NCBI GenBank assembly: GCA_008632985.1
Contig: QPGO01000033.1
Coordinates: 186,001-250,000, forward strand
From: Psammoneis japonica
Lineage: Eukaryota
Direction of reading: 5' to 3'
Length of the DNA stretch: 64,000 nucleotides
Made by a program: the position numbers and the translations under genes. The notes under the pieces were generated by a model. The model ran no database searches, had not been told where the DNA came from, and saw nothing but the letters and a program-made list of their open reading frames with translations. This document shows, one piece after another, positions 23,553-64,000 of this stretch; positions within the stretch are counted from its first letter, which is position 1, and each line of letters begins with the position of its first letter.

Positions 23553-23796
23553 TAGAAAATACAATACCAGTGTTTACCACCCAGTACAATGAGTACTCGG
23601 CTCTCTTGTCTGCAAGAGTGTACTCTTTCTTCAGTCCAATCATGTCCCTGGGCGAGAGAGCCTCGATGATAATTACATTCAAAGCACTTAGTAGTTAGAA
23701 GTACAACAGTACCAGTGCCACAGAGCACAAGAAGAACTCGGATCTCTAGTCTGCAAGAGTATACTCTTTTTTCAGTCCAATCGTGTCTCTGGGCGA
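23553..23796. repeat. Diverged duplication (about 100 bp) of the last codons and stop region of the oxidoreductase gene
   Basis: ctcggctctcttgtctgcaagagtgtactctttcttcagtccaatcatgtccctgggcga (23596-23655) vs ctcggatctctagtctgcaagagtatactcttttttcagtccaatcgtgtctctgggcga (23737-23796). Confidence 0.85.
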
Positions 23797-29467: not shown

Positions 29468-29769
29468 GGTTGAGAGCACTATGGGCGGGATCTACTATGT
29501 TATTGATTATGTCGAGTGTTGAAAGTAACTTCAAATTGAAGGTTGTGGTTTGGAGGTTCGGTTGTTGTTGAGCTTGCGACTTGCGACGCGGTGGATACCA
29601 ATGCGCTGCGCGCTTGCATGCTAGATCTACGAAGACTCAATCGCCAACAGCGACATGCTGTGTCATGTTGTGCGCACAGCACCCACTGTACAGCACAGCA
29701 AGTTGGGCTCTTTATGTAAAAGTAAAATGACGCAATGGATGAATCTCGCAATGAATGACATACACTGTA

Positions 29770-32565
29770 GATTGCAATTGCGGTGCTCCTCTTGCCGCAT
29801 GTGATGCCAGCATCATTCGCGCCAAAGCCAGCTGACTTCCTGGGCCTGATGTGATGTCTCATGTCGCTGCCAGTGCCGTTCGTGCCAAACTTGACCAACT
29901 CATCTCCAACACACTGCTGCTGCTGCTGCTGCTGCTTTTGAACTCAGCAAAACAGCAGCTGCCAACAGCCATTGTGAGCTGCTGTCAGCTGTTGCACACC
30001 TGCAGCCAAAAAACAGTGCAACATCAACAACTGCTGCCAACCAACTGCTGCCAACCAACAGCTGATGCTGCACACCTCTGGCTGACCTTTGTTGCAGCAG
30101 CTCGTCCAGCTGGCTTGATTTGCAGCTCACAGGAGCTGCAGCTGGCCACAGCCCCACCACATTTGACTGCTCCCACCCCCTGTGCATGCTGCTCTTGCAG
30201 CAGAGCAAGTGCAGCACACTGCAAGCAGCGAGCACACCGCAGCTCCTCCTTTTTGACACAACTGCGTGCACAAACCACTGGCTGGAACAGCACAATGTCA
30301 AACAACTCTGTTTTTCTGTTGCCCACCCTCTGTCTTTCTTCTCATCTTTTTTGGACAAGGATGACAATGTTGTTGGAGAGAGTGGCCAAACTGGCCATCC
30401 CTTGGCATCTCCAAAAAATGATGGTCTCTGGGGGCAATGATGGCATGCAAAAACCTTGACACATGCAGAAAGCTGTCTTTCCAGCACTTCATCCTTCCCC
30501 TCTGTTCCCCACCTCCTTCTTTGTGGATTGCTGCTGCTGTGCCAATGATGCCACTCACAGATGGTTGGTTGTGGTTCACCCACAAACACAGAGGCAGGTG
30601 GGGGCATGCCCGCTGAACACCTCCTGGCGCATGGCAAGAAGAAGGAGCTTTCAAAAAGCAGAGCTGGCTTCTTGTCCAAGATCTCATTGATGAAGACAAC
30701 AAAGCTTGTGCCATCATCTGAGCAAGACATCACCAACATCCGTGGGAATGAGAGGTCCCACATCTCATTTCAGAAAAAAGAAGTGTGCTTCCTTTTTTCC
30801 CTGTTGGCCAGCATTTTGCCAGCGACACAAAATCTGAAGCTTGCAAGCACCAAAAAAAGCAGAAGCCAGCACTTGAAGAACTCTGAGATCCCCACAGGTT
30901 GCCATTGCCATCTCAAACCTGACGCAAATGGGGAAAAGGTCAACTCGCAGTGTTGAACTGACGTGTTGACAGTGGCTGACAAAGGGAATCTTACAAAGCT
31001 TCCTCCACTCTTGACACGCACATCCTGGCTGCTTTTGTGGCTGTGGTTTGCCTGGAAGTTTATTCGATGTAACTTCTTTCACCAAATGGATTTGGTTTTA
31101 ACAGACACTTCCCAGCACCAATGACAACAGCTCATGTGCGCCAGATGATTCACTCCAAAGAGTGAGAATGCCACTTTTGGTGATGACAGTGTGATGACAA
31201 AGAATGCATTGTCATCAAACAGTCCACGTCAGGAGACAAACATCCATGGACTTCAACTGATTCCGGGTTCTCTCAGACCCTGGTCTAACTTGCTCCAACA
31301 CACAGTCAGGCAAGCCACAGCCTGACACACTTGCTCCATGTGATCATCACAATGGAAGCCAGCTGCGGCCATTTGCATGAACTTGGCACTGCAGTCCACT
31401 GCACACAAAGCAAAAAAAAACAGAGTGTGGAGCACTTCAGCCAAATCTTGTGCACCTTGAATCTGCCATTGAAAGGGGTTGATTCCAATCTTTTGGCAGA
31501 GCCAAAGAGAAGCTGCCCCCTCCTTGAGAAAAATGTGCCAGCCTGCCATGCTTCAATGAATGCCACACTCCTCTCACAAAGGATTTGAAGCAATCTGTGT
31601 GTCGCTGGTGGAATCGGATGATGTCAGGCACAAAAGTTGACAAGGCAGTCAACATGGCATTGCATGGCATCTTTCCAAATGGCACCCTCCTTGAGCTGGT
31701 GTGCACAAGGCCAATCAATTGATGCCTTGCATGAAGGAGTGTGTTGGAACATTGGGGTTTGATGCAGTTTTTGCAGTGGGACAGGCAGAAACCACAATGT
31801 TGCAGTGAATGATGCACTGATGACCATCAACAACATGGCAAGAGTTCATGTTTGCAGCTCATGATGAGTTGCAGGTGTTGTGCTCACCTTTTAGCTTCTG
31901 CACCTCTCCAACATGTCAAATGGTGACAGTGGTGTTGGAGTTGTGTTTGCAACCCAGCATGCAGTGAGTTGGGGGATTGGCGAGACAAGAGTGAGTTGGT
32001 CGGCAAGCCATGAAAGTCTGACAAGAGATCATGAAAGAGGCTGCCCTGAGGCTTTTTCTGTGCGACACTTGAAATGAAATGAGAACTCAGGTGATGTGGG
32101 GCTGTGGTCCATCACGATGCACAAGCAGCCCACGTCAGTGTGCAGCAAGGCAGGGGGCGGGACACCTTGTTGGCACTGCTGCAAAGGACCCTCTGAAATG
32201 TCACCTGTGATGCAGTTGGTGAGTGCTTGTGCTCTGAGGAAGTGCTGATGCTTTGTTTTGGAGTCATTGGAAGAGACAATGGACTGCAGGTGGAAAATCT
32301 CCAACATCAAGATCATCATCGCTGATCAAAACATTCATGGACGCTTGTTTGGATTCTTGGAAACTGCTCAAAGGACATGGTGTTGAGGCAAGACTGCTGC
32401 CACACCTTCCAAGAGAGGTGTGGCCAAACCCAGAGATCTTTGGTCAGTTTTACTGCCACAAGATCAAAAACAATCTTAGCACAAAGCTGAAATCTGAAAC
32501 AGTGGAAGAGTTGTCAGCGGCTTTCAGCAAGGCCAAGGTTGAGCTTGCAGACGGATGTTGCATGT
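29770..32565. mobile_element. Highly degenerate repeat/TE relic, depleted of both TpA and CpG; family not identifiable
   Basis: Abrupt compositional switch to TG/CA-rich sequence, matching the composition of the identifiable TEs in this window. No intact ORF and no termini found. Confidence 0.55.
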
Positions 32566-38110: not shown

Positions 38111-40607
38111 CTTCCTCCGGCAAGCGATAATTGTCCACGGCGAAACACCGTGTTATTCTTTTTGGGCCGTATAACGTAGCACCGCTTCCACGCAAGCAGT
38201 CTCGGCAGGAAAAGCATCCACGACCCACGACCAGACATCTCATCAAAACACATGGAACCGCTGATGAGACATGTCGCTCGTGCCGTCAACTGCAACTTCG
38301 TGTGCGACGACACTGCATCATGGACCCTCCTCCACTGCATCCAAGCGTCCACTCAATTGGTGCGTTGGTGCAGGTGGTGCCGGAACACCGCACGGGATGA
38401 CCCGACAGTGAAGGTGGGGTCGGCTGTGTCACGGAATTCAATGCTGCCAATGGCCAAGCGCATGTGCAGCATGCAATCAACAACAGTCTCAGTTTTGACA
38501 TTGTTCCAGGGAGACTCACCCCGGCATCATTGGCTGCAAGTGCTTGTCAGAGATCACCGAATGAAACTCGATGGCCATCAACATTGACGACAGAACAACG
38601 AAGGTGGCTGCACAAGGTCGATTGTGCTCGTGCCAGTGGAAAGGTGAAGGTGAAGAAGGATTCGTGTCACCATGTGTGTGGAGCTGATGGACCACTCCAT
38701 TGTCCCAAGGTTGCAGAGAACTTGTTGTGTCGCAAAGGCGAGGAGTGCTTTCAGAATTGGGAGGTTGCTCTGGACCGAATTCAGGGACAGAACGAAATCC
38801 GAAATTTGCACTGTTGGATTGCTTCCATGACACTCTGCAACGTGCGTTGTCATGTGCATTGTGTGTGTGAGTGTCTGTGCATCAAATGAGTTTGTGCTTC
38901 AATCGCACGTCAATCGTGGGTTCACGCGAAGGACAGATCAATCACACAGAGTTGATCGGATGTCGGAAATTGCAAACATGATCGTACGATGATGTCGACA
39001 TCTTCTGTGTCAATGTCAATCGCATCCGGACAATCTGTTGTCACGATCTCATTCTCCGAAAGGCCTCTTGTCTGTGGGAACAGCACAAATGCCTCAGGCC
39101 ATTGAGAACCCATTCAGAGAAACCCAAAATGATTGAGCAGAAACAAATCTTGTGATTTTCACTTTTCATGCTTGATTCTGCTTTCGTTTGCGACGCGTTC
39201 CAGGTCCAGGTGGGACCTCGCACTGCTGAACTGTGACATCAATGGTTTTTTGAATCACGTTGTATGTTGCGCATGCAGATTTCTACGTGATTTTTTTGAC
39301 ATTTTGTGTCATTTTACGGTGCACTTGTTGAGCGATCTGCCCTGCAACTTTTGACATTTTTTGTTGCAGCGCGATTCTACAACGTCTTAAGAATCGCGTG
39401 GGGCAGGCGCATTTGCAAAAACGTCGAGTGGCAAGAGGCACAATTGTGCCACAAACTTGGCTGTTCATTTGATGTTGAAGACAAACATGTCCATTGATGA
39501 AGTTCTTGCACTGCGGAGCTCGCACGTAGAATCCTGCGGGCCCAATGTCACACGGAGTCCCACCCAGGACTGGAACCCGTCTTACACTTGTTCTTCGAGC
39601 ACAGTGCAGCTCTGTTGGCAAAGTTGGAAGCAGTTGCTCAGAGGGTGGAAAACGACATGGGAAAACGAGTGCGTCTTTGGCGCCAGTGGGGTGACGCAAC
39701 ACCGCACATTGACAAGGTTCTCGTGGCCGGTGTTGATGGTGAATTCTCTCAATGCGGTTGGGAGCTTGCACCACAACCTCCAAACTCCCCACTCACCAAT
39801 GTTGAGGGTGCGCATTTCTTTCCTGCAATGGCCAAGAAGGTCACTGAAGACCAAGGCCTTGAAAGTGGTGGTCGACATTTGCAGGGGGGGCAACTGTGGG
39901 CATCCGTTCGTCGTGTTTATGATTGCCATCCCAAGGGAACAATCGCCCGGTCGTTTGTGCACCACAGTCAAGTGGTGAGTGCTGTTTTTCAGTGTGATGG
40001 GAGGGATGATTTTGCAAAGGATTCGCGATCGCTTCACTGTGGAATTCGGAAGTTTTTTCAGCATGTTGCCAACTCAGAAGAGACGCAGAATCCCGCCGGA
40101 GTGGAGGTGATTTTGAGCACCTTGATCCGGTGGAACAGAGTCCGCGGTGCCCGACGCTGGATGTCATTGGGGATGGGTGCAATCTGGCAGACTTCTTGAG
40201 TGAGAACGAGCTTTCAATGTTGGCGAACAATGTGGGCTGCTCATGTGAGAATGCTGAAGTGCATCTCATGGCGGAGCCAGAACAGAGTCGGGAGCTGTTC
40301 GATGCCGAGGTGCACCTGGAGCAGCACTGTTTTGGAAGGTGCTGTCTCTAGAGAATTGACAGCGTGCACTTGGAACTTGCGCTGGAGCATCTGTGTTGTC
40401 CCGCCATTGTGTCAAGTTGGTGTTTCATTCCGCAGTCGGGCCAAAAGGAGCGATTCAATGGCGAGCTCTAGAAGGTTTTGGTGGTGGCGCGAAAGGTGGC
40501 GCGAAATGGCACATGAACAAAAAAGTGCAGAAGCAGCACCACGATGTGCGGCCCAAAAAGAACAATGCGGTGTTTCCTCGTGGACAGTTGTCGCTTGCCG
40601 GAGGAAG
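38111..40607 (+). mobile_element. Tc1/mariner (plant-mariner/DD39D-like) DNA transposon, decayed, with about 85-bp TIRs and a nested MITE
   Basis: TIRs cttcctccggcaagcga...gaaacaccg...ttctttttgggccg at 38111 and, inverted, ending 40607. Both ends are flanked by TG (inferred former TA TSD). The transposase relic at 39588-40199 contains QWGDATPH and QPPNSPLTNV..AHFFP (cf. QPPNSPDLNVLDLGFF). Confidence 0.85.
39192..39581. mobile_element. 390-bp MITE, copy 1 (TpA-depleted), nested in the mariner
   Basis: About 25-bp TIR gacgcgttccagg.c.aggtgggac. Flanks TTGC/TTAC form a 4-bp TSD with one change. Full-length inverted match to 60939-61328. Confidence 0.92.
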
Positions 40608-41310
40608 TGCTCTAGAGAGTGGCCATCCGCGCAAGTGCAATGATGCCACAGACCATGGCATTTCTTTCTGTGCCGGAACTGGCGCTGATTCTGCACAGCG
40701 CCACATAAAATGCCACATTTTGCGCATGAAAAAAGTGTGCTGGTGATTGATTCTGGCCCCCGACTGCAACGAACTCATTTCCTTGGGGTGCCATTTCCAG
40801 TCGGTTTTCCCTTGTGCACTTCACACGCCCCCGTGCCCAGCGGTTTTTAACGCTTTGCTGTCAACGGAAAAGCAATTGGGGAGCATTGGAAAAATTGGTG
40901 GCGTTGGGGATCAAAATGCCATGTTCATGCCACATTTAGTGCAAAGTGTGGCATTTGTACGGATGACCAACTGCTGGTGGCAGCAGCAGAGAGTACATGC
41001 ATTACATGTGCTGAATGTACGTTTGTCTGTCCGCATTAAAAATTATGACTCAGACATTTGTCCACGATAGTCACATATATGCCTCATGAGTCATTGGATA
41101 AAATTCTCCAGTCATTGTTCGCAATAAAAAAATCTTTAAGACTCAAGAATGGATATTCGATGACTTTCAGATTGCCACAATATTGTCATCAAAAAGTTCG
41201 TTCTCGATGCATGGTGCATCGCATTTTCTGTCTCTAGTGTGCTGGTGTACCGCCAAGAATGACCCTTTAGCTGCATTAAAACAATACTCACCGCTCAACC
41301 AGAGATCAAG

Positions 41311-44910: not shown

Positions 44911-44988
44911 CAACGTCGAAGTGGTTTTGAATAAAAAGGGAAGAATCGTGAAGAATGTGCGTGCGCAAATGGTTGCATTGTAACAACG
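44843..44988 (+). repeat. Exact 73-bp tandem duplication covering the gene's last codons and stop
   Basis: tcgaagtggttttgaataaaaaggg...gcattgtaacaacg at 44843-44915 and 44916-44988. Confidence 0.95.
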
Positions 44989-50289: not shown

Positions 50290-52279
50290 TCAAACATTTG
50301 CGTTGAAGGATTGTGTGTGAAGTTAGCCTGCAACCCAAGAGGGCGGATCTACCATGGATGATTTGCAGATGGAAGCAGTTGACACCAGATTGCAAATGAG
50401 ATGCACTGGACTTTTTAAGTTGGTGGTGCGCAGTGTGCTGCGCATTCAACAATGTGGCAACGACTCGATTCTCTGTCAAGTGGTCACATTTGATCATGCA
50501 ATTCCATCCACTGCAATTCTGCAGTGTCTTCAAATTGTTTTTGCCAGTTTCAAATTGACCACTTCTCAAGCTCCAACCACCACAAGTGCCAGCAGCATGC
50601 AGAGGCACCGCTGGCTGCCACCAGTCATACAAAAAGGCTCCAACCGCCTCGATTGCCAGCAGCGCACAAAATCCAACTGCCTTGACCACCGTCAGCAGCT
50701 GCGCCAGCTCCCACCGCCACCAGCCCCAGTTGTGCACAGGCTCCAACCCTGGCAAGTGCCAGCAGCACACAGAGGCACCCACCGCCATCAGACAAAAATG
50801 CTCCAACCACCTCGATTGCCAGCAGTGCACTCAACCAGTGCCAACCAACCAGCCACACAGGCTCCCACGCACCGCCGCCAGTGCCAGTGGCAGGCACCGC
50901 CACCAGACAACAAGGATCCAATGAGCCCCATTGCTCCAAGCATGCTGTTTTGCACCTTCCACAATGGCAAAACTTCTTGCAGATGTTTTTGACATTGCCA
51001 ACTGACAATGAAGATGAAAACGAGTCATCCATGAATCATGACACAGTCAAAATCATGTGTGGTTCTCAGGGTGGCATGGCACAGCTCATTTCCATGCAAT
51101 TGTTGGATGCTCTCTACAAAGCACAGGAATCTTGTCAAGTTGATGTCATGGGTCTACACAAATGACCAAGAGCCGACCAAGCATTGGACCCCGACTCGTT
51201 GAATGTCTGTGTGTGATTGTGGTGAGTCGGTGTGAAAAGACAGCTCGCCAGTGGCACCAATCCCTGATCCACATGCATTTGAACTCAAGAAGTTGCAGAG
51301 CCAATTGACGCCAACACATGGTCGCCACTTTCGCCAGTGCCTCTTCCTGATTGCATGGATCCACTGCCATGATTGCCAAATTTCTGAGAGACAAGCCAGT
51401 TGGTGTCAATGCACAAACTTGCATCTCTCTGTCATGCGCCATTGCTCCACACCAAAAAATGGAGCACAAGCCATCAAATGACATTCCATCTTTGTGGAGA
51501 ACGTGATGCACCAGTGATCAGCAGCATTTTGTCTCCACAGCGGATGAAGTGGAGTTCTGATGTGTTGCACAGCAACAGCGCAGACTGCGGGATGAGACAG
51601 ATGCAACAAACTGACAGTCATGGAGGTGACGGTTGGTTGTTTTTGAATCAGAGTTTTGTGGATTTCTGTGCATGTGCGTGCTGTCACCCATTTTTTTAAA
51701 GCCCTGGTCTCCATTCCCCGCAACATGAGTTTTTTTTTGCCGGTGTGGTGTTGCCGCATTTCAGTTTTCACCCCAGCCATTGTCATTTCCCTTTTGTTGG
51801 CAGTGCATCACTGACATCCCTCAACTTCTCCTCCACCCATGACTTCACACCTGTTTCTTTCTCAAACGTGCACAACCCTGCCAGTGGCCCCTGTTGATCA
51901 TGAATGACCCTGCCAATGGCTCTTCATCAATGAGATCATGTGTGACCCTTTTTTTGCTTCTTCTCCTTTTTTCTTCAATCGTGCCAGCTGCCGACTGTGC
52001 GTCACTCTGCAGGGTTGCTGAAAGCCAGCAGTTTTGCTGCCATCTTTGACCAGGCACCTGTCATCCTCTTTGCTGATTTTTGCTTTGGTGCGGACTTCTC
52101 CAACCACCCAATCTGTTCTTCATTGCCACCCCCTGCTGGCTGCCACCTCATCCTCCAGCCTGTCTGCCCACGTTGCCGGCCCACCCTTCTTCTTGCCTCC
52201 GCCACCCCCCCCCACCCTCCAACACACCCCAACATCCCAGTTGTTCCAAAAATCTGTGTGGCTGGCTGACAAAAAATTC
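50290..52279. repeat. Degenerate TpA-depleted repeat region with internal direct repeats (about 50586-50900)
   Basis: TG/CA-rich composition. gccagcagca..cagaggcacc...ctccaacc.cctcgattgccagcag occurs twice. Confidence 0.55.
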
Positions 52280-52461
52280 TGCACCGTCCGCGAATTTTCA
52301 TTGCTTGACATGTTTGCAAGAATCCAACGGACAAACACACATGTGTGTCATGAGGGTTCACATTGCTTTTAGCGACAAGACACATTCTGTGCTGGCCAAA
52401 CTTGCCAATGTTTTTAATCGTGAAATGTCAATGGAGAGTTGGTCGTGGAAAGACGTCAACT

Positions 52462-52587
52462 AATCACAAGTCATCACAAGCAATCACAAGTCATCATGAG
52501 CAATCAAAAGTCATCACAAGCAATCACAAGTCATCACAAGTCATCATGAGTGATCACAAGTCATCATGAGTCATCACAAGCAATCAA
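52462..52587 (+). repeat. 10-mer satellite (AAGTCATCAC / AAGCAATCAC); further tracts at about 53069-53125 and 58571-58618
   Basis: Directly visible tandem units. The second tract is split by the Gypsy insertion. Confidence 0.92.
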
Positions 52588-53125
52588 GACAAAAAGTGTC
52601 CACAGACAAACTGACGTGCATGCCAGCCCTTCAAATGATGTGACCGTTGCCTCCACTCTGCAACAGGAAAGCCATCATTGACACATGGCTTTCCCGTTGA
52701 AAGCATTTCGAGATCACATTTATCAGGAGAAGAGGGGCCGTTTGTCGCGCTCTCACTGTCTTGTCAAGTCCAAGAAAAACAAGAGCTGATTGCAACTTGC
52801 ATTGACGATGCCTCAGACTGCCCAATTGCGCGCGCTTCTGGCCCCACACTCACATTTGCAGCACCTGAAGCAGTTGAATTCTTTGTTGTGGCAATCATGG
52901 TTTTACTTTCATGGCTTTGCTGATTGTTGTTTGAACGCCACAGTTGATGCCAGTCAACATCAACGTGTCCTTTCCGTCTTCTGCTGCATCTCGTGTTGAT
53001 GACATTTTTGCACAGACAGACAGCTGGCTGTCCTTCGCACGGGAACCGCACACTCGACTTCCTTGAGTGAAGTCATCACAAGTCATCAAAAGCAATCACA
53101 AGTCATCACAAGCCATCACAAATCA

Positions 53126-53299
53126 TGCAGCAACTCACTCGCACGCTTCTGACATGTGGTGTTAATTTTGGACATTGGATTGATGCAGCCATTTGAGAGG
53201 GCTCGCCAGCACTCGCCAGCGCTCGCTGATGCTTGGGCTCTCCCTCTCTTCGGTCTGCTCACTTCTTTGTTTTGACATCAACCTCAGCTTGAGCTTGCA
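53126..53299 (+). repeat. 5' LTR (174 bp)
   Basis: Direct repeat of 58398-58570 with TG..CA termini. Confidence 0.95.
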
Positions 53300-53329
53300 C
53301 TGCAGCTGCAGTCGATTGTAAAGAGCTGA

Positions 53330-54629
53330 ATGAGAAATGACGATGCAGTTGACAGGCTTGCGAAACAAGAGAAAAGAACTTTGAGAGCGAAGGCAGCGAA
53401 TTGGGCTTTGGAACAAAAACGAGAAAAGGAGACACGAAAACAACGTGAACAGGATTTGGCGATTTGGCTGGCACAACTCGAATCGAAGGTAGAGTGCTTG
53501 AAACAGTTTCTTGGTGGACCAACTTGGCCTGACGAGTGATCGCGAGAGCCTTGGGGAACCGTGCATTTTGCATGCTGCAAAATTTGCTCACTCGGATTTG
53601 GAACTCGTAAAATTGACTCAATCGCATGATGATGGAAGCACGCACACGAAAAAGTGCCCTTGTTTTGACGGAAGCAATGGAATTGAAGCTTTGTTGTTTG
53701 TGGAAGATCGTTTTCATAAACTGGCTGCAAAACTCGAATTCACTGCAGGAGAAGAATTGTTTGATGATTTTGAAGAAGCGTTGATGGATGCAGCTGAAGA
53801 CAAATGGTCCAATCTCACCATGGCGATTCCGGGTGCGCAGAAGACGGCAGCTCGTTTCGACCAAGAGTTGGCTCGTTTTCATTTGTCGCATTGTGAAACT
53901 GAAGCTTGTGACATGATGATTGAATGCTTGCTTGCTCTTAAAAAGCCGTGTGATGTTGAAGTGCAGGCACACGCAGATCGAATGGAAACTTTGGTGTGAC
54001 ACACAAACAAGTTGCTGGGAAATGATCCAGTTGTCACTCAGAACCAAAAGAAGAAGATGATTTTTGACAGCTTCCCTCTGTCATGGCGCGAGATGTGCAC
54101 AAGAGCAGGACGCACGATTGGAAATGACACACTGGCGGAAACAGTCACGCACATGAGCACGGAGAAATCATTTGCGGACAGGAACAAGAAGACGTCGAAA
54201 AAGCGCAAAGATGGACAGAATGAAGGCGGCTCGAATGAGAAGAAAGGCAATCGCATTGACCCAGAATCCCAATGTCCGTTGCACACTCACAATCACAAGT
54301 GGAAAGATTGCGCCATGAATCCCGACTCCAACAACTGCCATCCAAGAACTGATCGTGGCGGTCGTGGATGTGGTGGCCGTGGTGGTCGAGGTGGCGGTCG
54401 CGGTGGAGGTCGTGGTCATGGCGGAAATCAAGGTTGTGGTTGGCAAGGCCGTGGCTGTCAAGGTCGTGGTGGTGGCCAAGGAAATTGTGGCGGTCCAGGA
54501 AACTGCAACTCTGGTGGCAACAGCGGCGAGCATCATGAAGATGGTGGCTCCTGCGTGCAACATCAAAATGACACCCAAACCAATGCAGATGGCGGGTTGC
54601 GGCAGTCTGGCCAGAATGGCTCCTCCTGA
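53330..54629 (+). pseudogene. gag: Gypsy gag relic (frameshifted, with stop codons)
   Basis: Position after the 5' LTR, helical capsid-like segment, CPLH..H.WKDC knuckle, RGG-rich tail. Confidence 0.7.
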
Positions 54630-54833
54630 TGATTGGTCTGCTGAAAGCCATCATCTTGATTCTGTGGGAGGGCCTCATGAGTGTCGAGGTGGAGCGGGAA
54701 GTTTTCGACCTGGTGGTCGCTTCTCGGGACGCGGTCAACACTGACCCAATGAGCTTGAAGAGCTGTCATCCAAGTGTGTCGCTCCTGATTCCCACATGTT
54801 TGATGATTGCACTGACGCACCGATGATTGTCAT

Positions 54834-57800
54834 GTGCATGCTGCTGATTTGTTTGATGATGACGATTTCGAAAATCACACCATGAATGATGAAGACGATG
54901 TGGGACTTGAGTGTGCTGCACCAACCCCAAAAACAAAACCAACCAAACCTTCAAACGTGGTCCCCACAACCTTGTTCGCGGCGCGATTCATTCAAGATGA
55001 GGAAAGCAAGTGCGTGATGCGGGTGTTGCTCGACTCTGGTGGAGCCCACTCAATGATTCATGCTCGGGTGTTGCCAGTTGGAGTGGCACCAGCATTGGAG
55101 GACACAGGACCAATTGTTGCGAAGTTTTGGACATTGGCGGGAGAATTCAAATCCACTCGTTACGTTCGACTGCGGGGTGTGGTGCTCCCTGAATTTGACA
55201 AGACCAAACGTGTTGATGGCATGCATGCGCATGTGTTTGACTCACCTTGCCAGCACGACATGATCTTTAGACAGGACTTCTTGGCGAGAGCAGGTGTCAC
55301 GTTAGATTTCGAGCACGGAATTGTCAAGTGGCTCGATTCAAGCATTGCAATGAAACCTGGAAACCATCGGATTGGCATCCAGCAGTGGCTTGACGACTTG
55401 ACTGATGAGCCAGCTAACGATGATGATGCATGGGACAGCTGCATCCTCGATGCAAAGTATGAGGAGACGTCCCCTTCTGAAGCAGCGTTGGCTCAGAAGC
55501 ATCTCACTGCCAAACAACAAGAAAAATTACGCCTCGCATTGGAAAAACACACTGCTCTTTTTGATGGCACTCTTGGCAAGCATGCTGGCGAAAAAGTTCA
55601 CCTTGACATTGATCCTGACGCTGTTCCTCACCATTCTCGAGCACACACAGTGCCGCACAATGATCTCGAGACTTTCAAACGAGAACTGGATCATTCAGTG
55701 GCTCGAAGCCGGAACAACGGAATGGGCTGCTGGCACTTTTATTCGGCCGAAGAAGGATGGTCGAGTGCGGTGGCTCAGCAATTTTTGGGAACTCAACAAA
55801 GCCCTCAAGCGCAAGGTTTGTCCTTTGCCGATCATTCAAGATGTGCTGCAGAAGAGAGCCGGGTGCAAGTTTTTGACCAAATTGGACCTCTCAATGATGT
55901 GCCACATGTTCAAATTGGATGACGATTCCAAGGACTTGACAACAATCGTGACACCCTTTGGAAAGTGCCGATGCTGCCGTTTGGCAATGGGTCTGAAGCC
56001 GGCTCCAGACATTGCACAATGTTTGATTGAGAAAACTGTGCACGACTTGGACGTTGACGTGCACATTGATGATCTCACTCAATTTGATGACGACTTTGAC
56101 ATTCACCTTGACCGTCTTGACAAACTCTTGCAATGCTTGGAAGAAGCTGGGTTCAAAGTGAATCCCTTGAAATGCGAATGGTGCGTGCAGGAAACGGATT
56201 TCCTTGGGCATTGGCTAACTCCGACTGGAATTCATCCATGGAAGAAAAAGGTGGAGGCTGTCCTGCGAATGCAACCTCCGGAAAACATCAAGCAGCTTCG
56301 TTTGTTCCTTGGCGCTGCAACGCATTGTCGCAGTGTGTGGCCTCAGCGTTCTCACCCATTGAAACCCTTGACAGATCTTACAGGCAAAGGCTCATGGACA
56401 TGGACAATGGAATGTCAGGTGGCGTTCGATGAGATGAAAGCAGTCCTAGTGGCCGAAACATCAACGGCACATCCGAATCACAACAAACCCTTCCACATCT
56501 ACACCGATGCAAAAGTGATTGCCAGATGGGCGCAGTGATTGTACAGGATGGAAAGCCTGTTGCATGCTGGTCTCAAAAGCTCAATGCAGCACAACAAAAC
56601 TGTTCAACGATCGAAAAAGAACTGTTGGCCATTGTCATGTGCTTCCGAGAGTGCCGATCGATGCTCCTTGGCGGCGACTTGCATGCGTTCACTGACCACA
56701 AGAACCTCACCTTTCGCACCTTGAATTCACAGCGCGCACTTCGTTGGCGACTCTTTCTGGAAGACTTTTCTCCTCAGTTTCATTGCATTGAAGGCCGATT
56801 GAATGTCTTGGCTGATTGTTTTTCTCGTTTACCTTGCATGGATCCTCCCTCTGAAGGGAAGAGCTTGGCTCCGGGTAAAGGAACTGTTGTTGATTTTGCT
56901 CCGCTTGATTCGAAGTTGGTGCCGAGTGAGGAACCATCCGAAGTCGAGGATTTCTGCAATGAGGACTTGGAGCTCGGCACGTGCCGTTTCAAGTGTTGTC
57001 GCAACATTGAAAATGAAGGCCACTCACACTTCTTCTCTTTCTTTGTGGATGAGCCGGAACTGTTCGATTCTTTCTTGAATTGCCCTGCGATGCAAGAGAT
57101 GCAGAATCCGATGACGTTACAACGTGTTCAGGAGTGCCAGTTCGAGGACCAACAGTTGAACCAGATGCGCGTTGCTCACCCTGATCGTTTCCTCATGGAA
57201 CATGTGAACAATCGACCGCTTGTGTGTTGTCGCATGCGACTGAATGATCCTCCAGGACAGTGGAAAATCTGTTTGCCGACTGCACTTGTGCCCGACATCT
57301 TGCGGTGGTGTCATCTCGTCCTTGGCCATGCCGGAAGCCAGTGCATGTGTGAAACGATCCAGGCTCATTGTTGTCATCCTGGGTTGCGTTGCATGTGTGA
57401 TGAATGCTCTTGTGCTGATTGCCAACATAACAAAACTTTGGGTCCTGGCCATGGAGAGTCACCCGAGCGAGAAGCTCCATCAACTCCCTGGTTGGAAGTG
57501 GCGGTTGACCTCATTGGCCCATGGAAAATCAAAGCACCGAATGGAGAGATTGAGTTTCGGGCATTGACCTGCATTGATCCTGTCTCCAATCTTGTTGAAC
57601 TTGTGAGAATTGAAAATAAAACTGCCCGACATGTTGCTGACCAATTTGAAAACTGCTGGCTTGCACGCCATCCCAGACCAAATCGATGTGTCCACGACAA
57701 CGGCGGCAAGTTCACCGGGTGCGATTTTCAGATGCTGTTGCAACAAGCCGGAATTGATGATGTGCCGACTGCTTTGTACAACCCTCAAGCCAACGCCATT

Positions 57801-58272
57801 TGTGAACGAATGCACCAGACCATCGGCAATGCATTGTGCACGCTCATTGCTTCTGGCCCACCTCAAAATCTTCAAGATGCAGCTGGCCTCGTGGACGATG
57901 CTTTGGCAACTGCAATGCACGCAACTCGCTGTGCTGTTTCCCGTTCTTTACAGACTTTGCCAGGTGCCATGGTGTTCGGACGTGACATGATCCTAGATGT
58001 CCCTGTGCTGGCAGACTTGTTGACGATCCAAGGCCATCGCCAGATGCTGATCAACGATGATTTGCGAAGAGCCAATGCCAAGAGAAGATCCTGCAATTAT
58101 CAAGTGGGTGATCAAGTTCCAATCAAGTCGGTCGACCCGTCCAGACTCGAGCCTTGTGCTCATGGCCCTTGTCCCATTGTTCAAGTGCATGTGAGTGGCA
58201 CGCTTTGCTTCGTTGAGCTCCTCATGTGGTTGAGCGCCTCAACATTCAGCACCTGATTCCTTTTCGTGGTTG
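54834..58272 (+). pseudogene. pol: Gypsy pol relic: protease, RT, RNase H, integrase (frameshifted, Tyr->Cys/His mutated)
   Basis: VLLDSGG (PR); PKKDGRVR, KLDL, TPFGK, HIDD, FLGH (RT); IYTDA, EKELLAIV, TDHKNL, ADCFSR (RNase H); VAVDLIGP, DNGGKF, PQANAICERMH (IN). Confidence 0.93.
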
Positions 58273-58397
58273 ATCAGGGGGGGTTTTCTTCCCAACACCT
58301 GGGTTTCCTCCTGCCACCGTGATTTCTTTGGGTTTTGGTCCCTGGTTTTGGCCCTTTGCATGATCCTCCAGTTCTTTTGGATCATGGAAGGGAAGAG

Positions 58398-58570
58398 TGC
58401 AGCAACTCACTCGCATGCTTCTGACATGTGGCATCAATTTTGGATGTCAGATTAACGCAGCCGTTTGAGAGGGCTGCCAGCACTCGCCAGCGCTCGCTGA
58501 TGCTTGGGCTCTCCCTCTCTTCGGTCTGCTCACTTCTTTGTTTTGACATCAACCTCAGCTTGAGCTTGCA
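58398..58570 (+). repeat. 3' LTR (173 bp)
   Basis: Direct repeat of 53126-53299, preceded by the PPT. Confidence 0.95.
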
Positions 58571-59106
58571 AATCATCACAAGTCATCACAAGTCATCACA
58601 AGTCATCACAAGTCATCAACAGCCCTCACGACTCAAAACACAGAAAGGCACATGAATGAACAAGTCACAAACAGTGCCATGTTGTTCGCCAAAGAAGACT
58701 GAATTTAACGGACAACCGTTACAAACTGCATGACACCATTCACAAAAATTTCCATTGCATTTGTGTAAATGTTCACAACTGGTAAAAATTTGCGGACGGT
58801 GCAGAGATGGGAGCTGACAGTCGCGACAATGACAGTTTTCTGTTTCCTTCCAGTTTGGGCTGGGCTCTTCATGTGCGCATGACATGCTGCACTCTCATCT
58901 CTTGTTCCCTCTCATTTTGAGAAAACACCCATCTGTCATTGTGGCTTCTCCTCCATGCTGCTCCTCTTCAAAAGAATTTTGGCACTCTCTCCAACAAAGC
59001 ACAAACTTGCCACATTGTTCACAATCATCAATGCGTCTCACACTGCGAGACATTGACTGTCTGTCCTGTGAAAACTGCCTCCAACCCTGAACCCTGATGT
59101 TGCAAC

Positions 59107-59396
59107 CAGGGTTAACCAACTGCAAAGTTTTCTGCAGCAATCAGATTGCAGTCAGTTGATTGCATCGCTGCGATTGCATGGTCTGACGAACAGACTGCAG
59201 CCGTAGAAATCGAGCCATTTTGCTCATTTTAGCTGCAAAAAGAGCTCGAATTTCGATTGCGATCGATTGCAACAGTCGATTGTGATTGCCACCTCGGCTC
59301 TTTCCTGACAATCAGGTCACTGCAATCGAGTTTGCAGCAGTGACTGCAATCAAAGTGAGGCCAATTGCAATCAATCCCAGCAATCGGTTGACACTG
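59107..59396. mobile_element. hAT-type MITE (290 bp)
   Basis: TIRs CAGGGTTAACC / GGTTGACACTG, perfect 8-bp TSD GTTGCAAC (59099-59106, 59397-59404), many internal GATTGC/GCAATC motifs. Confidence 0.8.
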
Positions 59397-60938
59397 GTTG
59401 CAACATGTGAGCCACACACGTGCTTTTCACTTCCTCTTTTTTTTTTAAAGGTGTGAGGTCATCGCACACAAACTGAGCACATTTCTGTGTGATTGATCAA
59501 AGCATGCCTCTGCATCTGTGGTTTGCAAGAAGTGCACAAGCTCTCTGTGTGTGTCAAAAAATGACCTCTTTTTCCATTGGTGTGATTGTTGTTTGCTCTC
59601 CAACAAAAAGAAGCTGCAGAGATTGCACATGTGAAGTCTTGCTTGCTGCTGTCTCCTGCAGATTCCTGCCTGGAGCTGGGGGGTGAGCAGCTGGTGCAAC
59701 AGTGCAATGCTTGGGAGGCACACCAAATGAGCAGAGTGCTCACAAGCCAGGGTGGCAACATTGGCTGCCCAGGCAAAAACAAACCCCATGTGCCACTCAT
59801 GTCCCAAAAGTGGCAAACAAGATGTGTCACAATGGTTTGTGTTGTTGCAATCTTGGCAAGGTGCTGCTCTGGTGGACGTGTTGTTGGCGCTCATTTGTGT
59901 TTGCTGGCCATGCAACTGCCAATGAAACAGGGGGTCAAAGATGACAGAGAGATCATGGAGCAGGGGCTTGTTGAAACAAAATGGCAACTGCTGCAAAATT
60001 TTTAAGTTTTCTCTTGTGTTCATGCAAAGAGCAAAGAAGAGTTCAGGGCAGAGCACACATGTCTTTCAATGCACATGAACAAGTCATTGCAAAAAATGGT
60101 GGTCCATGTGCACTGAAAAATGTGTTTGAATTTTGCAATGCTTTGCACGAAAAAGTGAGTTGGCAAATGTTTTCAGTGCACAAGAGCTCCTGCATGACAA
60201 AAGTGATTTTTGTGGAGCTGGGTGTGCAACAGCTTTGCAGGCAAACATTGTCAAAGACAGTGTCAGCCATTTGTGCACAAGTCAAACAAAATGCCAAGTG
60301 AGATGTGGCAGACACTTGATGCTCACTTGAGCATCACTTGCAGCATCCATCTGGGGATCCATGGCCAATGCATCTTTGGGTTGAGCTGTGTCATTGACAG
60401 CATGGCTGTCAGGCATGGGAGCTGTGCCCAACCAACTTGGATTGGCTTGTCAAAGCATGCCAAAGATCAAACAATTGGCCACAGATGAGGCGGGAGGCAA
60501 AGCAGATCTTGCTCATGGCAAACCAAGCACAACAGCCAGGCAGCAGCTGACATGTGGGTGGCACAAGCTGTCAGGAAGCATTTGGACTTGATGTCAATGG
60601 GAGTCGAATGCTTGCAAGTGCTGGCGCTTCTTTTTGACAAATTGAGCAGATGCTTGGAAGCAACAGGAGAATGGCAGCACCTCCAGAGTGTGTGCTGGCA
60701 GCTGCTGTGGGCAGCGCAGTGGCTGATGAAAACCACGCCAAATCTAGACAAGGTCGTTGATGCCAAACAACAAAACATTTGTGGCAGTTGCTTGCTGGAG
60801 GAGGCAGAGATGGCAGTTTGGGTTCATGTGACAGAGACCACTCTCTTTTCCAGCCCAAACGCACAAACAATTTCATGTTGTGATCAATTGCAAACACCAC
60901 AAATCTTGTTGTGTGCCTTGTTGGCCACATGCCACAGC

Positions 60939-61328
60939 GACGCGTTCCAGCCCTAGGTGGGACTCCGTGTGACATTGGGCCCGTAGAATTCTACGTGCGA
61001 GCTCCGTAGTACGAGAATTTAATTAATGGATATATTTATCTTCAACATCAAATAAACGGCCAAGTTTGTGGTGCAATTATGCCTCTTACCACTCGACGTT
61101 TTTGCAAATGCTCCTGCCCTACGCGATTCTTAAGACATTATAGAATCGCGCTGTAACAAAAAATGTCAAAAGTTGTTGGACGGATCGCTCAATAAATGTA
61201 CCGTAAAATGACACAAAATATCAAAAAAATCACGTAGAAATCTACGTGCGCGACATACGACGTGATTCAAAAAACTGTCGATGTCACAGTTCAGTAGTGC
61301 GAGGTCCCACCTAGACCTGGAACGCGTC
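60939..61328. mobile_element. 390-bp MITE, copy 2 (TpA largely intact)
   Basis: TIRs gacgcgttccagccctaggtgggac / gtcccacctagacctggaacgcgtc, perfect 4-bp TSD CAGC, inverted relative to 39192-39581. Confidence 0.93.
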
Positions 61329-61479
61329 CAGCCTTCCTTGAGAGCAATGCTGACCTTTTGGGATTTCTGTGGCATTGCCGCTTTCAGAAGAGCTTTGTTG
61401 ATGATTGATTGATTTGATTGACAAGACATCACAGGGGCATCTTTGGTGCCTGGGTGGTTTGTGCAATGTTGGGTCCCGT

Positions 61480-61615
61480 GACACAACCTCAGATGATCAA
61501 AAGGGCTCTTTGTTTTGGGGTTGGGGCAACCAAGATTGCAGATTCCCATGACACAACCTCGGATGATCAAAAGGGCTCTTTGTTTTGGGGTTGGGGTGAC
61601 CAAGATTGCAGATTG
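61480..61615 (+). repeat. About 70-bp tandem duplication
   Basis: gacacaacctc.gatgatcaaaagggctctttgttttggggttgggg..accaagattgcagatt twice. The copies differ by CA/TG and CA/CG. Confidence 0.9.
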
Positions 61616-64000
61616 AACCTGTGCAAAGCCAACTCAACAGAGATGCCCATGGGCATGAGACCACAAAAGAGGACGTTTGTGAAAAGAGAGAAAAGAATCT
61701 CAGCAAGAGCTGCTGCAGGGCCAATTGTGGGCTTGTTTGGCACCATGGCATTCTGTTGTCAAACACTTGGTTGTGCAACATGCAGAACACTGACGCTGTC
61801 CTGTGGCAGGAACACCAGTCAAGACTCTTGCAAAAATCCTGCCACAGTCCAAAAAGAGACAGGCTCAACTGGCTCACAAAGAAGCCACAATGCAGATTTC
61901 ACAAAAACACCACAAGGGCACCTGACTGTGACAGAGGCAATAGCTGGGCTGGGTGAAAGACTCCCCCCACCATGCACTGTGAGAGTCCAATGATGACAAG
62001 AAGAATGAGAACAGATCTTGTGAGAGACAATCTGACCAGCACCCCAAGTTCTGACCATCATGCATTGACAAGCTGGGCAATCTGCTGCTGCAATGTGCCA
62101 TGTGTGGCACAAAAAAATGCTTGGTGTGACACACAGGCAAAGTCATCATGGACTCTGTGCCCCTGGAGCTGCAGAAAAGTCTGGTCTTTGGGCCATGGCC
62201 TGTTGGGGTGGTGCTCCAGGGAACTGTGCTGATGCTTGTGTGCCAATTTGCCAAGGTTCCCACTTCAGTGGAGGGGTTCAGTCAAAAACAATCAAATGCT
62301 CACAAATCACTTCAAGCTGTGCTTTTTCTGCTGCTGCTGTGTTTTGACATGCCAGTTGTTGTGCACTCCTGCCCAGGTGCTGGTGGTTGCCAACAACCCT
62401 GCTCAGAGCCAAGACTGCCAGCTGGTGGTGAGCTCTGCAACTCAGAGACACTCAGTGGCATGTCATCCAAGCTGGTTGTGCACAAGCTCCTGCTGCCACT
62501 GCACATGCTGGCAAACCAAAGCATCTTTTGTCATGGCCTTTTGCAGCTTCTTGAGTTTTCCAGGCTCCTGCAAGATGGAGTCAGCACACTCTCCTCATTG
62601 CCTGCTCTGGAGCTCCATCATCAAAGCCTTCAGCATCTTCCTCATCACAGTCATTTGCCAGGGCACAGAGCTTGAGATTGAGGCACCTGTTGTCATTTCC
62701 ACTGACCTGCAGAAGATCCTTGAAGCTGGTTGTTTTGCAAAGAAAAGGAAGAGGAGCCAACAACTTTTGAACTTTGCTTTCTCATCTGCCCCCTGTTCAG
62801 CCAGCGAGTCAAAGCAGGCTTGCCTTGCTTTCAGGAAGGCCTGGCACTTGGGGCGTTTTTTGCCAAACCTGGGAACAAGTGCCTGTGCTGAAAAAGAAGG
62901 TCAACAGAGTTGGAGATGTCTGCCCCAGCTGAAAAGGGAGCTTGGGCTCTTGCTTTGTTTCCACTTTGAACAATCTTGGCCTCTGCATCTCTGGTCTTGA
63001 CAGCATGAGGGAACTCTGCATTCCAGGAGTGAGCCAAGCACAAGTGAGGAGTTGTGAGAAAACAAGAGCAACTTGTTGAAGACTGTGCACTTCTTTTCAC
63101 ACCATCATCACTGGCAAGCCCCGCAAAATGCTTGCAGGTGGCTTGTCCATTTCTGCCAGTGCTTTGTCTGGGTTGGAGCTCTTTTGGTGGCACCTGCCTG
63201 ACACTCCTGTGCAAGAGTGGATGCACAACATTGCCTTGTGTAAAAACTTTCTTGATGTGGTCAGGATCTTCATTGTTTGGATCCCAGCCACATGCTCTTC
63301 TTGAGTCACATCAAGCTGCTGAAGTGATGGGCACACTCCAGGGCCAGGTTTTCTTCCAGCAAGGCACTTTTGATGATGCTGCTCAGCTCACAAAAGAGCA
63401 AGATGCCAGTGGCAGCAAGAGCTGCACTTTTTCTGTGGGGGCACAAGAGTCAAAAATGCAAGAGACATCTTGACGGACTAAATTTTGCACTTCTCTGCAA
63501 GTGATTGCACTTGCTTGCCTGATTGCTGAAAAGCAGCAAGAACAAACAAGAGAGTGTCTGACAAGACTGTTGACACCCCACTCATGACCAAACTTGCAGC
63601 TGGCTGGCTTGCAAAATCCAGCCAGAAATTCATGCTCCTGCTTGGGCACTGTGTCCCAGCACAGACTCATGTTCAACTTTGCCAGCAAAAAGAGCTCCAG
63701 CCAGAGTTTTTTGTTCAAAGAGGAGTTCACAAGGGAGCCCATGGCAAAGCTGCAAAAGACCTGTGTGTGGCCAGCACGTGTGTGTGTGCTCACAAGGCAT
63801 CTGATGGCAAAATTTTGCTGGCTTCCAGAGAGGCCAGAAAACCAACTTCTTTTTTGCCAAAACTTGCCCGCTCAGGTGCTGTTGCATCTCACGTGACTTT
63901 TTGATGACAGCCAACTTCTCAGTTCTTGCACACACTGCAAAAAGCTGATGCATGGCACCACAGTCTGCAGTGTGACCCTCCCCTTCTCTTTCACATTCTG

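Follow-up and report, generated by a model that had tools for sequence, protein, structure and literature searches.

Probable erosion of TpA after insertion in an LTR retrotransposon and other repeats of a pennate diatom

Deaminases can hypermutate mobile elements and leave traces fossilised in genomes, as do animal APOBEC enzymes acting on retroelement cDNA and ADARs acting on repeat RNA. In mutation-accumulation lines of the alga Bigelowiella natans, 230 of 231 hypermutations were A>G or T>C, all at TpA dinucleotides, and the hypermutated target was integrated viral DNA (Mettrop et al., bioRxiv 10.64898/2026.01.13.699255). The available main text of that preprint nowhere uses the words LTR, retrotransposon, diatom or stramenopile, and in the literature we found no diatom or LTR report of TpA hypermutation. 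CpG decay is known for diatom transposons, with methylation cited for P. tricornutum (available part of PMC6604790), and diatom dating by LTR or consensus divergence uses a uniform P. tricornutum mutation rate (available part of bioRxiv 10.1101/2025.10.24.684338). So far the 2026 preprint on B. natans, an alga unrelated to diatoms, is the only report of the TpA-only signature, and diatom repeats would be a new case. Here we analyse a 64-kb stretch of diatom DNA (the window) in which repeats have probably been eroded by chromosomal TpA to TpG/CpA changes after insertion, several-fold faster than by CpG decay.

The element at the centre of this study lies in a pennate diatom's nuclear genome. 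It is a 5.4-kb Ty3/gypsy (Metaviridae) LTR retrotransposon with TG..CA ends, a 5-bp target-site duplication, a polypurine tract and the domain order protease, reverse transcriptase (RT), RNase H, integrase (Table 1). The named relatives that match it best are from two diatoms, Cylindrotheca closterium and Nitzschia inconspicua. Pfam searches gave no match for the Gag-like region or for the region of the protease motif, and the protease was recognised solely by its DSG motif. When the element is removed together with one copy of AATCA, the surrounding minisatellite regains a perfect 10-mer unit; this restored register and the target-site duplication show one insertion event.

Table 1. Features of the element, its LTR pair and the repeat blocks of the window.
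Feature	Position	Strand	Details and basis
TpA-depleted block	29751..32500	.	o/e TA 0.06, CG 0.20, TG 1.98, CA 1.69; no recognisable protein domain
TpA-depleted block	38251..41000	.	o/e TA 0.10, CG 0.78; carries copy a of 390-nt repeat
TpA-depleted repeat domain containing the element	50501..64000	.	TA o/e 0.07 (50501-61000), 0.03 (61251-64000)
Target-site duplication AATCA, 5' copy	53121..53125	+	inside 10-bp minisatellite; same pentamer flanks both LTRs
5' LTR	53126..53299	+	174 nt, TG...CA termini; repeat finding, alignment, direct reading
5' LTR variable patch	53144..53204	+	holds 11/11 substitutions and the 1-nt indel; alignment
LTR site	53144		CG in 5' LTR, TG in 3' LTR
LTR site	53160-61		TG in 5' LTR, CA in 3' LTR
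LTR site	53163-64		TA in 5' LTR, CA in 3' LTR
LTR site	53173-74		CA in 5' LTR, TG in 3' LTR
LTR site	53176-77		TG in 5' LTR, CA in 3' LTR
LTR site	53181-82		TG in 5' LTR, TA in 3' LTR
LTR site	53184-85		TG in 5' LTR, CG in 3' LTR
LTR site	53190-91		CA in 5' LTR, CG in 3' LTR
LTR site	53204		C absent from 3' LTR (1-nt indel)
Gag-like region	53487..54560	+	Cys/His knuckle-like motif and Arg/Gly-rich tail in translation; putative, from position only
Aspartic protease active-site motif (LLDSG)	55026..55040	+	putative; by eye in translation
Reverse transcriptase domain	55780..56215	+	PF00078 E = 4.6e-13; Ty3 RT 4ol8 E = 2.4e-27
RNase H domain	56400..56770	+	PF17919, PF17917; frameshift near 56526-56538 splits domain (ORF layout)
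Integrase zinc-binding and catalytic core	57276..57790	+	PF17921, PF00665
Polypurine tract	58386..58397	+	adjoins 3' LTR; direct reading
3' LTR	58398..58570	+	173 nt, TG...CA termini; repeat finding, alignment, direct reading
Target-site duplication AATCA, 3' copy	58571..58575	+	direct reading

The 5,445 nt of the element contain 28 TA dinucleotides, with 591 TG and 440 CA. Observed over expected ratios (o/e) are 0.08 for TA, 1.63 for TG and 1.39 for CA, with AA at 1.27, AT at 0.98, TT at 1.22 and CpG at 0.76. Of the stop triplets, TGA is abundant across all six frames, whereas TAA and TAG are scarce. Within the in-frame part of the RT, the 11 conserved tyrosine (TAY) columns now read cysteine (TGY) in six cases, histidine (CAY) in four and tyrosine in one, and the catalytic YxDD has become HIDD. 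Conserved columns of other residues in the same part were largely kept (Leu 23/31, Lys 12/15, Trp 7/8). The Cys/His-for-Tyr replacements recur in the comparison with Ty3 RT, and 104 of 120 RT homologues carry no Cys or His at the conserved tyrosine columns. Because tyrosine codons of the interior became Cys/His codons, the direction of change was from TA to TG/CA.

Within the 64-kb window, TA o/e is 0.03-0.10 in four repeat blocks, compared with 0.59 across the 44,250 nt of genic DNA that make up the rest. AA, AT and TT are not depleted where TpA is; CpG o/e across the blocks ranges from 0.06 to 0.78, and their G+C is 0.49-0.51. A pair of 390-nt repeats gives a direct comparison: copy b retains TA at 20 sites that read CA (11) or TG (9) in copy a, and no site shows the reverse, leaving TA o/e at 0.88 in copy b and 0.24 in copy a. 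CG was likewise kept in copy b by 7:1. In related elements elsewhere, TA o/e is 0.56-0.98 at 12 of 13 metagenome loci; TpA depletion was therefore acquired and does not characterise the lineage. The TA-depleted state with Tyr-to-Cys/His replacements also appears in three independent data sets (P0031, P0091 and L009).

The sequence-only reading that drew attention to the locus reported TG/CA changes between the two LTRs, TA surviving in one copy at two of five sites, CpG transitions and a 1-nt indel; the strings it quoted are exact, and our alignment reproduced every one of these features. The LTRs differ by 11 substitutions and one gap column, and all 11 substitutions are transitions within shared YpR steps, none lying elsewhere, for a divergence of 6.4% overall and 0% outside YpR steps. 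By class, three sites are TG/CA, two keep TA in one copy, and three are of CpG type. Taken in order, the five TA-type sites read TG, TA, CA, TG and TG in the 5' LTR and CA, CA, TG, CA and TA in the 3' LTR, such that both strands were hit in each. Unchanged YpR steps number 14 CA/CA, 14 TG/TG and 5 CG/CG. No differences occur in the first 18 nt or the last 95 nt (113 identical nt), and the variable patch is the sole AT-rich portion of the LTR.

Presupposing TA ancestry and an in-situ origin of the LTR differences, 8 of 10 TA site-copies have changed, compared with none of the 182 site-copies outside YpR steps (Fisher p = 1e-12), a disparity that argues against chance; under the same assumptions 3 of 16 CpG site-copies have changed (p = 0.004 against the TA class). 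Likelihood favours a TA over a CG ancestor by a ratio of 1.4e4 for the whole LTR, or 9 if the process was confined to a 49-nt patch. At the three TG/CA sites, TA is thus the preferred ancestor by likelihood and context rather than by an outgroup LTR copy; the earlier description of TA as the parsimonious ancestor is too strong, as a CG ancestor at these sites costs equal steps. The fraction of visible TA sites lost in the LTRs (80%) agrees with that in the element interior (about 90%), and most of the loss can therefore be post-integration. Moreover, TG and CA outcomes are interspersed (runs-test z -1.8 to +1.1 in the repeat blocks), as expected if sites were hit singly and independently on both strands. 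The three CpG changes sit among the TA-type changes, whereas both LTRs retain five further CpG sites; a conversion tract or local targeting would account for this as readily as independent decay site by site.

The family comprises about 80 copy-equivalents (depth about 2,500 vs about 30). Among about 2,121 contig pieces, variation falls at 441 transition and 59 transversion places, and 22 of the 40 variants listed (of 500) are of CpG type (CG vs TG/CA), none of the 40 lying within the LTR. CpG decay is therefore real in this family. At those 40 listed places, most or all contigs differ from the window's letter. Similarity to the window is 99% or more for 415 of the 2,121 pieces, contigs reach 315 kb, and the sequencing run compared contains 63% of sampled words of the stretch.

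Could CpG decay alone have produced the LTR pattern? The three TG/CA sites would then have been CpG, hit on opposite strands in the two LTRs, and the two TA-bearing sites would be C>T changes at CpA or TpG. This account needs no more steps than TA ancestry, has three single-hit CpG sites within the same patch to build on, and draws on the low CpG o/e of some repeat blocks (range 0.06-0.78), the CpG-type share of the listed family variants and a likelihood ratio against it of just 9 for the patch. Yet it must create TA where TA is otherwise being eliminated, it leaves the near-absence of TpA (28 in 5,445 nt) and the loss of tyrosine at 10 of 11 conserved columns unexplained, and it sits poorly with five CpG sites intact in both LTRs, an element CpG o/e still at 0.76 and the whole-LTR ratio of 1.4e4. 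We consider it improbable, and reject 5mCpG deamination as the sole cause: neither the Tyr-to-Cys/His changes nor the TA/TG and TA/CA site classes can come from CpG, whose decay is a second process. A rather more serious alternative, although still unlikely, accepts TA decay but denies that the LTR differences are of in-situ origin, an ectopic gene-conversion tract from a further copy of the family having replaced about 50-60 nt of one LTR, or consensus polishing having made a chimera there. The confinement of all 11 substitutions and the indel to 53144-53204 beside 113 identical nt, the clustering of CpG with TA-type changes, the size of the family and the absence of the window's letters from compared contigs at a number of places all speak for it. 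Against this, an AT-rich patch would concentrate TA sites anyway; 5 TA sites are visible per LTR where 5.3 are expected at the genomic o/e; the fraction of TA lost matches that of the interior; and on this account too the variants would be mutational, having arisen in chromosomal copies.

Retroelements have an RNA stage, and an ADAR-type 5' U preference is noted in the available Discussion of bioRxiv 10.64898/2026.01.13.699255; A-to-I hyperediting of sense and antisense transcripts, fixed through reverse transcription and reinsertion, would exploit both. But one template for both LTRs predicts identical edits, and the LTRs differ at five TA-type sites, which bears out the earlier claim that the changes are not RNA editing of the retrotranscript. 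AA is not depleted (o/e 1.27), and blocks with no recognisable RT are depleted equally, making such editing highly improbable. ADARs are, to our knowledge, confined to animals. Equally hard to credit is a sequencing artefact in which modified bases of repeats were miscalled and TA read as TG or CA in a long-read assembly. The 63% word content of the one run compared would allow it, whereas the contig pieces with 99% or more similarity to the window, together with contigs of up to 315 kb, imply accurate reads, the same state recurs in the independent data sets, and frameshifts and CpG decay co-occur with it. A different chemistry deserves more weight while remaining doubtful, namely modification of the thymine of TpA in silenced DNA, such as its hydroxylation to 5-hydroxymethyluracil or beyond, so that it mispairs with G and yields T>C. 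TpA is palindromic and the attacked base is indistinguishable by sequence alone; dinoflagellates are known to hypermodify thymine, preferentially at TpA. Set against it, 5'-U/T-A is the native context of TadA/ADAT2 enzymes, a point also discussed in the available text of the B. natans preprint.

Post-insertion erosion of TpA in chromosomal DNA, on both strands and far above background, as the sequence-only reading had proposed, thus draws support from the polarity of the RT tyrosine changes, the TpA o/e of the blocks and of relatives, the 20:0 asymmetry of the 390-nt pair and the precedent of B. natans. In the scheme that we favour, the element inserted with a 5-bp duplication into the 10-bp minisatellite and would then have been eroded in place. 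A-to-G changes would strike either strand at TpA, the strand chosen independently site by site. They would outpace the accompanying CpG-to-TpG/CpA decay several-fold, and other substitutions by two orders of magnitude or more. Independent hits on the two LTRs would explain why an ancestral TA is now TG in one and CA in the other, or is left in only one. About 90% of interior TpA would have been removed, turning Tyr codons into Cys/His codons and killing pol, along with 90-97% of TpA in the other repeat blocks of the window. The most likely mechanism would be repeat-targeted adenine deamination in DNA at 5'-TA beside ordinary 5mCpG decay, by a putative DNA-acting adenine deaminase with the TadA/ADAT2-type 5'-U/T-A preference, directed to silenced repeat chromatin; such a system would be a functional mirror image of fungal RIP. 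A wider proposal, which we offer as possible rather than probable, is that diatoms defend themselves by adenine deamination of DNA directed at repeats, with TpA erased from all silenced repeats more quickly than methyl-CpG decays, and that the same system operates in the rhizarian B. natans. If so, it would be an old, widespread and so far unnoticed form of genome immunity in the SAR supergroup and would systematically distort the dating of transposons in these algae.

These observations would extend to diatoms a process so far described in a single preprint on a single alga. Diatoms are a major lineage of phytoplankton and genetically tractable, which brings the enzyme, and the signal that targets it, within reach of a practical experiment. 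The targets of the process also widen beyond integrated viruses to LTR retrotransposons and unclassified repeats, hit near saturation. The LTR pair serves as an internal clock and argues for changes in chromosomal DNA after integration; dating at a uniform rate would overestimate the ages of such elements. The loss of Tyr, TAA and TAG from hypermutated elements would give rise to spurious long ORFs on both strands and mask protein homology, with consequences for repeat and gene annotation in genomes with such hypermutation.

Among known systems, 5mC-driven CpG decay in methylated transposons shares the TpG/CpA products and has acted both in these blocks and at three LTR sites, but it cannot remove TpA or convert Tyr to Cys/His, and is slower here (3/16 vs 8/10 site-copies, on the assumptions above). 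APOBEC and ADAR act before integration, leaving the LTRs alike, whereas these LTRs diverged after insertion; APOBEC gives G>A/C>T and ADAR is not limited to UA, while TA alone is affected here. Like fungal RIP, the pattern is transition-only, dinucleotide-specific, repeat-targeted, chromosomal and on both strands, kills transposons and makes divergence dating unreliable. RIP, however, runs in the opposite direction, from CpA/TpG to TpA with enrichment of TA and A+T, whereas here TA is destroyed and TG/CA enriched; RIP itself was rejected on the depletion of TA and the G+C of the blocks. As far as the available text of the preprint describes B. natans, both cases show A>G/T>C changes only, at TpA only, giving TpG and CpA, and both are restricted to particular foreign or repeat regions. 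The rate in B. natans lies orders of magnitude above background, and would do so here if TA ancestry and an in-situ origin of the LTR differences hold (8/10 vs 0/182 LTR site-copies). They differ in host, B. natans being a chlorarachniophyte (rhizarian) and ours a diatom (stramenopile); in target, here an LTR retrotransposon family and unclassified repeats; and in extent, the TpA o/e of 0.03-0.10 here being near saturation compared with 0.45 in the giant-virus insert of B. natans. Our evidence is historical, read from an LTR pair and tyrosine codons, whereas B. natans provides a real-time experiment.

We found reverse transcriptase (RT), RNase H and integrase domains by Pfam search in the Ty3/gypsy order between two LTRs, and the element RT matched the Ty3 RT 4ol8 at E = 2.4e-27; the integrase region likewise matched integrases. 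Among named relatives, those closest to the RT come from Cylindrotheca closterium and Nitzschia inconspicua elements. The pol region is split over at least three frames. The insertion site is a 10-bp minisatellite, and deleting the element together with one flanking pentamer restores an exact 10-mer unit; since the same pentamer also flanks both LTRs, both derive from a single insertion event. No further copy of the LTR or of the element was detected in the window at E < 1e-5. The region 52000-60000 contains 24 ORFs of 100 aa or longer, many of them long and overlapping on both strands of the dead element because TAA and TAG are nearly absent, making it a trap for gene callers.

Features of the window, in window positions; TA o/e is the observed/expected ratio of TpA
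Feature	Position	Strand	TA o/e	Remarks
Asparagine-synthase-domain protein	9878-11692			Long uninterrupted ORF
PUB-domain protein	19905-21134			Long uninterrupted ORF
Pyridine-nucleotide oxidoreductase	23746-25029	minus		Long uninterrupted ORF
SET/MYND protein	25912-27063			Long uninterrupted ORF
MFS transporter	27359-29491	minus		Long uninterrupted ORF
TpA-depleted block	29751-32500		0.06	
TpA-depleted block	38251-41000		0.10	
TpA-depleted block	50501-61000		0.07	
TpA-depleted block	61251-64000		0.03	
390-nt repeat, copy a	39192-39581		0.24	89% identity to copy b
390-nt repeat, copy b	60939-61328	reverse complement	0.88	89% identity to copy a
Pentamer AATCA	53121-53125 and 58571-58575			Flanks both LTRs; direct reading
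5' LTR	53126-53299			174 nt; TG...CA ends; repeat finding, alignment, direct reading
Polypurine tract	58386-58397			Adjoins 3' LTR
3' LTR	58398-58570			173 nt; TG...CA ends; direct repeat of 5' LTR; repeat finding, alignment, direct reading

The sequence-only reading had described LTRs that differ mainly by reciprocal TG/CA changes, and alignment and direct reading reproduced both its quoted sequences and this pattern exactly. The pair differs by 11 substitutions, all transitions and all within YpR steps (TA, TG, CA or CG) common to both copies, and by one 1-nt gap. At three sites TG in one copy faces CA in the other, with the orientation changing from site to site; at two more, TA is kept in one copy (one TA/CA, one TG/TA). 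The few CpG transitions and single indel also mentioned in that reading correspond to three sites with CG in one copy and TG or CA in the other, and to the gap. Everything else is identical, including every non-YpR position and the remaining YpR steps (14 CA/CA, 14 TG/TG and 5 CG/CG). All differences fall within 53144-53204. Since the pair has an overall divergence of 6.4%, with 0% outside YpR steps, naive LTR dating fails for this element, as the same reading had warned.

If the five sites were TA in the ancestor, change has affected 8 of 10 TA site-copies; the corresponding figures are 3 of 16 for CpG (p = 0.004) and 0 of 182 for all remaining site-copies (p = 1e-12). The genomic TA o/e predicts 5.3 TA per LTR, against the five counted. 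TA loss at the visible LTR sites (80%) is close to that in the element interior (about 90%), so most interior decay can likewise postdate insertion. Since TG and CA outcomes occur together in each LTR, each copy was hit on both strands, in agreement with the earlier claim. RNA editing before reverse transcription, also rejected in that claim, is excluded for the differing sites, as it would yield identical LTRs. The pair thus shows decay acting after integration, on both strands and faster than CpG decay, subject to the possibilities of conversion and chimerism considered below.

Repeats in the window have undergone TA-specific A:T>G:C decay, and its direction is established in the element interior. 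Both tyrosine codons contain TA. Aligning the RT ORF with 120 homologues gave 11 conserved Tyr columns within the in-frame part, at which the element has Cys (6), His (4) or Tyr (1); other conserved residues are mostly kept (Leu 23/31, Lys 12/15, Trp 7/8). The YxDD box reads HIDD, and alignment to the Ty3 RT gives the same replacements. A step from TAY to TGY or CAY is the very change proposed, and it cannot have a CpG origin. Neither Cys nor His occurs at conserved Tyr columns in 104 of the 120 homologues. The whole element has 28 TA, 591 TG and 440 CA dinucleotides (TA o/e 0.08), with TGA abundant and TAA and TAG rare in all six frames. AA (1.27), AT (0.98) and TT (1.22) are not depleted, which rules out GC-biased gene conversion. 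As a composition control we used 13 related metagenome loci: TA o/e is 0.56-0.98 in 12, the remaining one, L009, being TpA-depleted; the TpA-poor state of the element is thus an acquired one.

At the three reciprocal LTR sites, a CG ancestor followed by CpG decay would account for the TG/CA differences equally simply. We surveyed the element family by mapping the contigs of one public run, which contains 63% of the words sampled from the stretch, on the element at 80% likeness. The 2,121 matching contig pieces had a summed depth near 2,500, compared with about 30 for single pieces, or about 80 copy-equivalents. Transitions accounted for 441 of the variant places and transversions for 59; among 40 of these 500 that were listed, all outside the LTR, 22 were CG versus TG/CA, three were TA versus TG, and one adjacent pair was TG versus CA. 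CpG decay is therefore a genuine second process in the family, and for that reason the CG ancestor survives when sites are judged by parsimony alone. In a likelihood comparison of the site patterns, TA ancestry is favored over a CG ancestor combined with CpA>TpA change by 1.4e4 across the whole LTR, but by only 9 when the process may be limited to the 49-nt patch. TA as ancestor, proposed earlier on parsimony, is accordingly upheld at these three sites by indirect evidence (the likelihood, the interior Tyr codons and the composition) and not by parsimony itself.

The clustering of the LTR differences could also have been made by an ectopic conversion tract from another family copy, or by chimeric polishing of a family with so many copies. 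In keeping with either, the three changed CpG sites lie among the TA-type changes, and the five other CpG sites are intact in both LTRs; against them, no part of the LTR but the differing patch is AT-rich, and a concentration of TA sites there is expected in any case. Under conversion or chimerism the variants would still be products of mutation in chromosomal copies, but in-situ divergence of the pair, and any rate estimated from it, would weaken. The earlier claim that the changes followed insertion and far outpaced background presupposes such in-situ divergence, as well as TA ancestry. The observation on the LTR pair is confirmed, and its interpretation as TA decay supported.

Scanning 500-nt windows for TA o/e below 0.25 defined four extended blocks, in all of which TG and CA o/e lie at 1.55-1.98. 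Two lone windows also fell below the threshold (7251-7750 and 18501-19000; TA o/e 0.18-0.21), without a TG/CA excess. The other 44,250 nt are gene-bearing, with a TA o/e of 0.59 and CG of 0.96; positions 1-29500 are gene-dense and ordinary in TA o/e. The best named relatives of the asparagine-synthase-domain and oxidoreductase ORFs come from Fragilaria crotonensis, Cylindrotheca, Nitzschia, Seminavis and Striatella (top identities 44-63%). Together with the relatives of the RT, these diatom matches identify the host as a pennate diatom and rule out Bigelowiella natans. The genic part also contains two identical 73-nt units in tandem (44843-44915 and 44916-44988). Across the blocks, CpG o/e spans 0.11-0.78 and TA o/e 0.03-0.10, so TA has been lost more evenly and more thoroughly than CpG. 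In 29751-32500 and 61251-64000 both are lost (TA 0.03-0.06, CG 0.11-0.20), and YpR steps are nearly all TG/CA. A Pfam scan of 51 ORFs from the blocks other than that of the element returned no credible family and one sub-threshold match (E = 0.002). TG and CA are interspersed in the blocks as for independent events (runs-test z -1.8 to +1.1); strand-coordinated TG-versus-CA tracts were sought there and none was found, leaving long processive single-strand events without support. The minisatellite AAGTCATCAC and its variants (52458-52597, 53070-53125 and 58571-58625) show reciprocity among units like that of the LTRs: the unit junction is CAC|AAG in most units and CAT|GAG in four, and positions 4-5 of GCAATCAC-type units are mostly CA, with one unit each showing TG and TA.

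Between the two members of the 390-nt inverted repeat pair there are 38 transitions and 4 transversions. At 20 sites TA survives in copy b and faces CA (11) or TG (9) in copy a, with no case in the reverse direction; CG is kept by copy b at 7 sites versus 1 in reverse. Copy b retains 27 TA and 28 CG, and its TA content is ordinary, without a RIP-like excess. Copy b is nearly unmutated despite its position between two strongly depleted blocks.

A platform artefact as the source of the signature is argued against by other data sets. The RT homologues P0031 and P0091 have Cys or His at 7 and 4 conserved Tyr columns, respectively; the metagenome contig L009 (1-1591) has a TA o/e of 0.12 and Cys or His at 2 of the 3 conserved Tyr columns of its fragment, and its outcomes differ from those of the window at shared columns. 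The signature thus occurs beyond the Psammoneis assembly, and these environmental relatives suggest that the process acts in other organisms too.

TadA/ADAT2 enzymes act natively in a U33-A34 context. We tentatively propose, at slightly less than even confidence, that TA would decay to TG/CA through a DNA-acting adenine deaminase with a 5'-T preference matching that context, directed to silenced repeats. Thymine modification in place of adenine deamination would leave the same footprint, as TpA is its own complement. In mutation-accumulation lines of B. natans, the reported mutation rate of two integrated viral regions is about 6e-7 per site and generation, with 230 of 231 single-nucleotide mutations A>G or T>C, all 230 on TpA; the agent proposed there is a DNA adenine deaminase of ADAT2-like type, and the authors liken its 5'-T preference to the TadA/ADAT2 context (Mettrop et al., bioRxiv 10.64898/2026.01.13.699255). 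The terms LTR, retrotransposon, diatom and stramenopile are absent from the main text of that preprint, the sole direct precedent that we found; our literature search found no report of TpA loss in diatom repeats. Mutation accumulation in P. tricornutum is described as having the usual GC>AT bias, and a uniform P. tricornutum rate has reportedly been used to date diatom LTR elements (bioRxiv 10.1101/2025.10.24.684338). The process in the element resembles that reported for B. natans in being A:T>G:C at TpA. What is new here is this just-described decay in a diatom host, with LTR retrotransposons as its target and near saturation.
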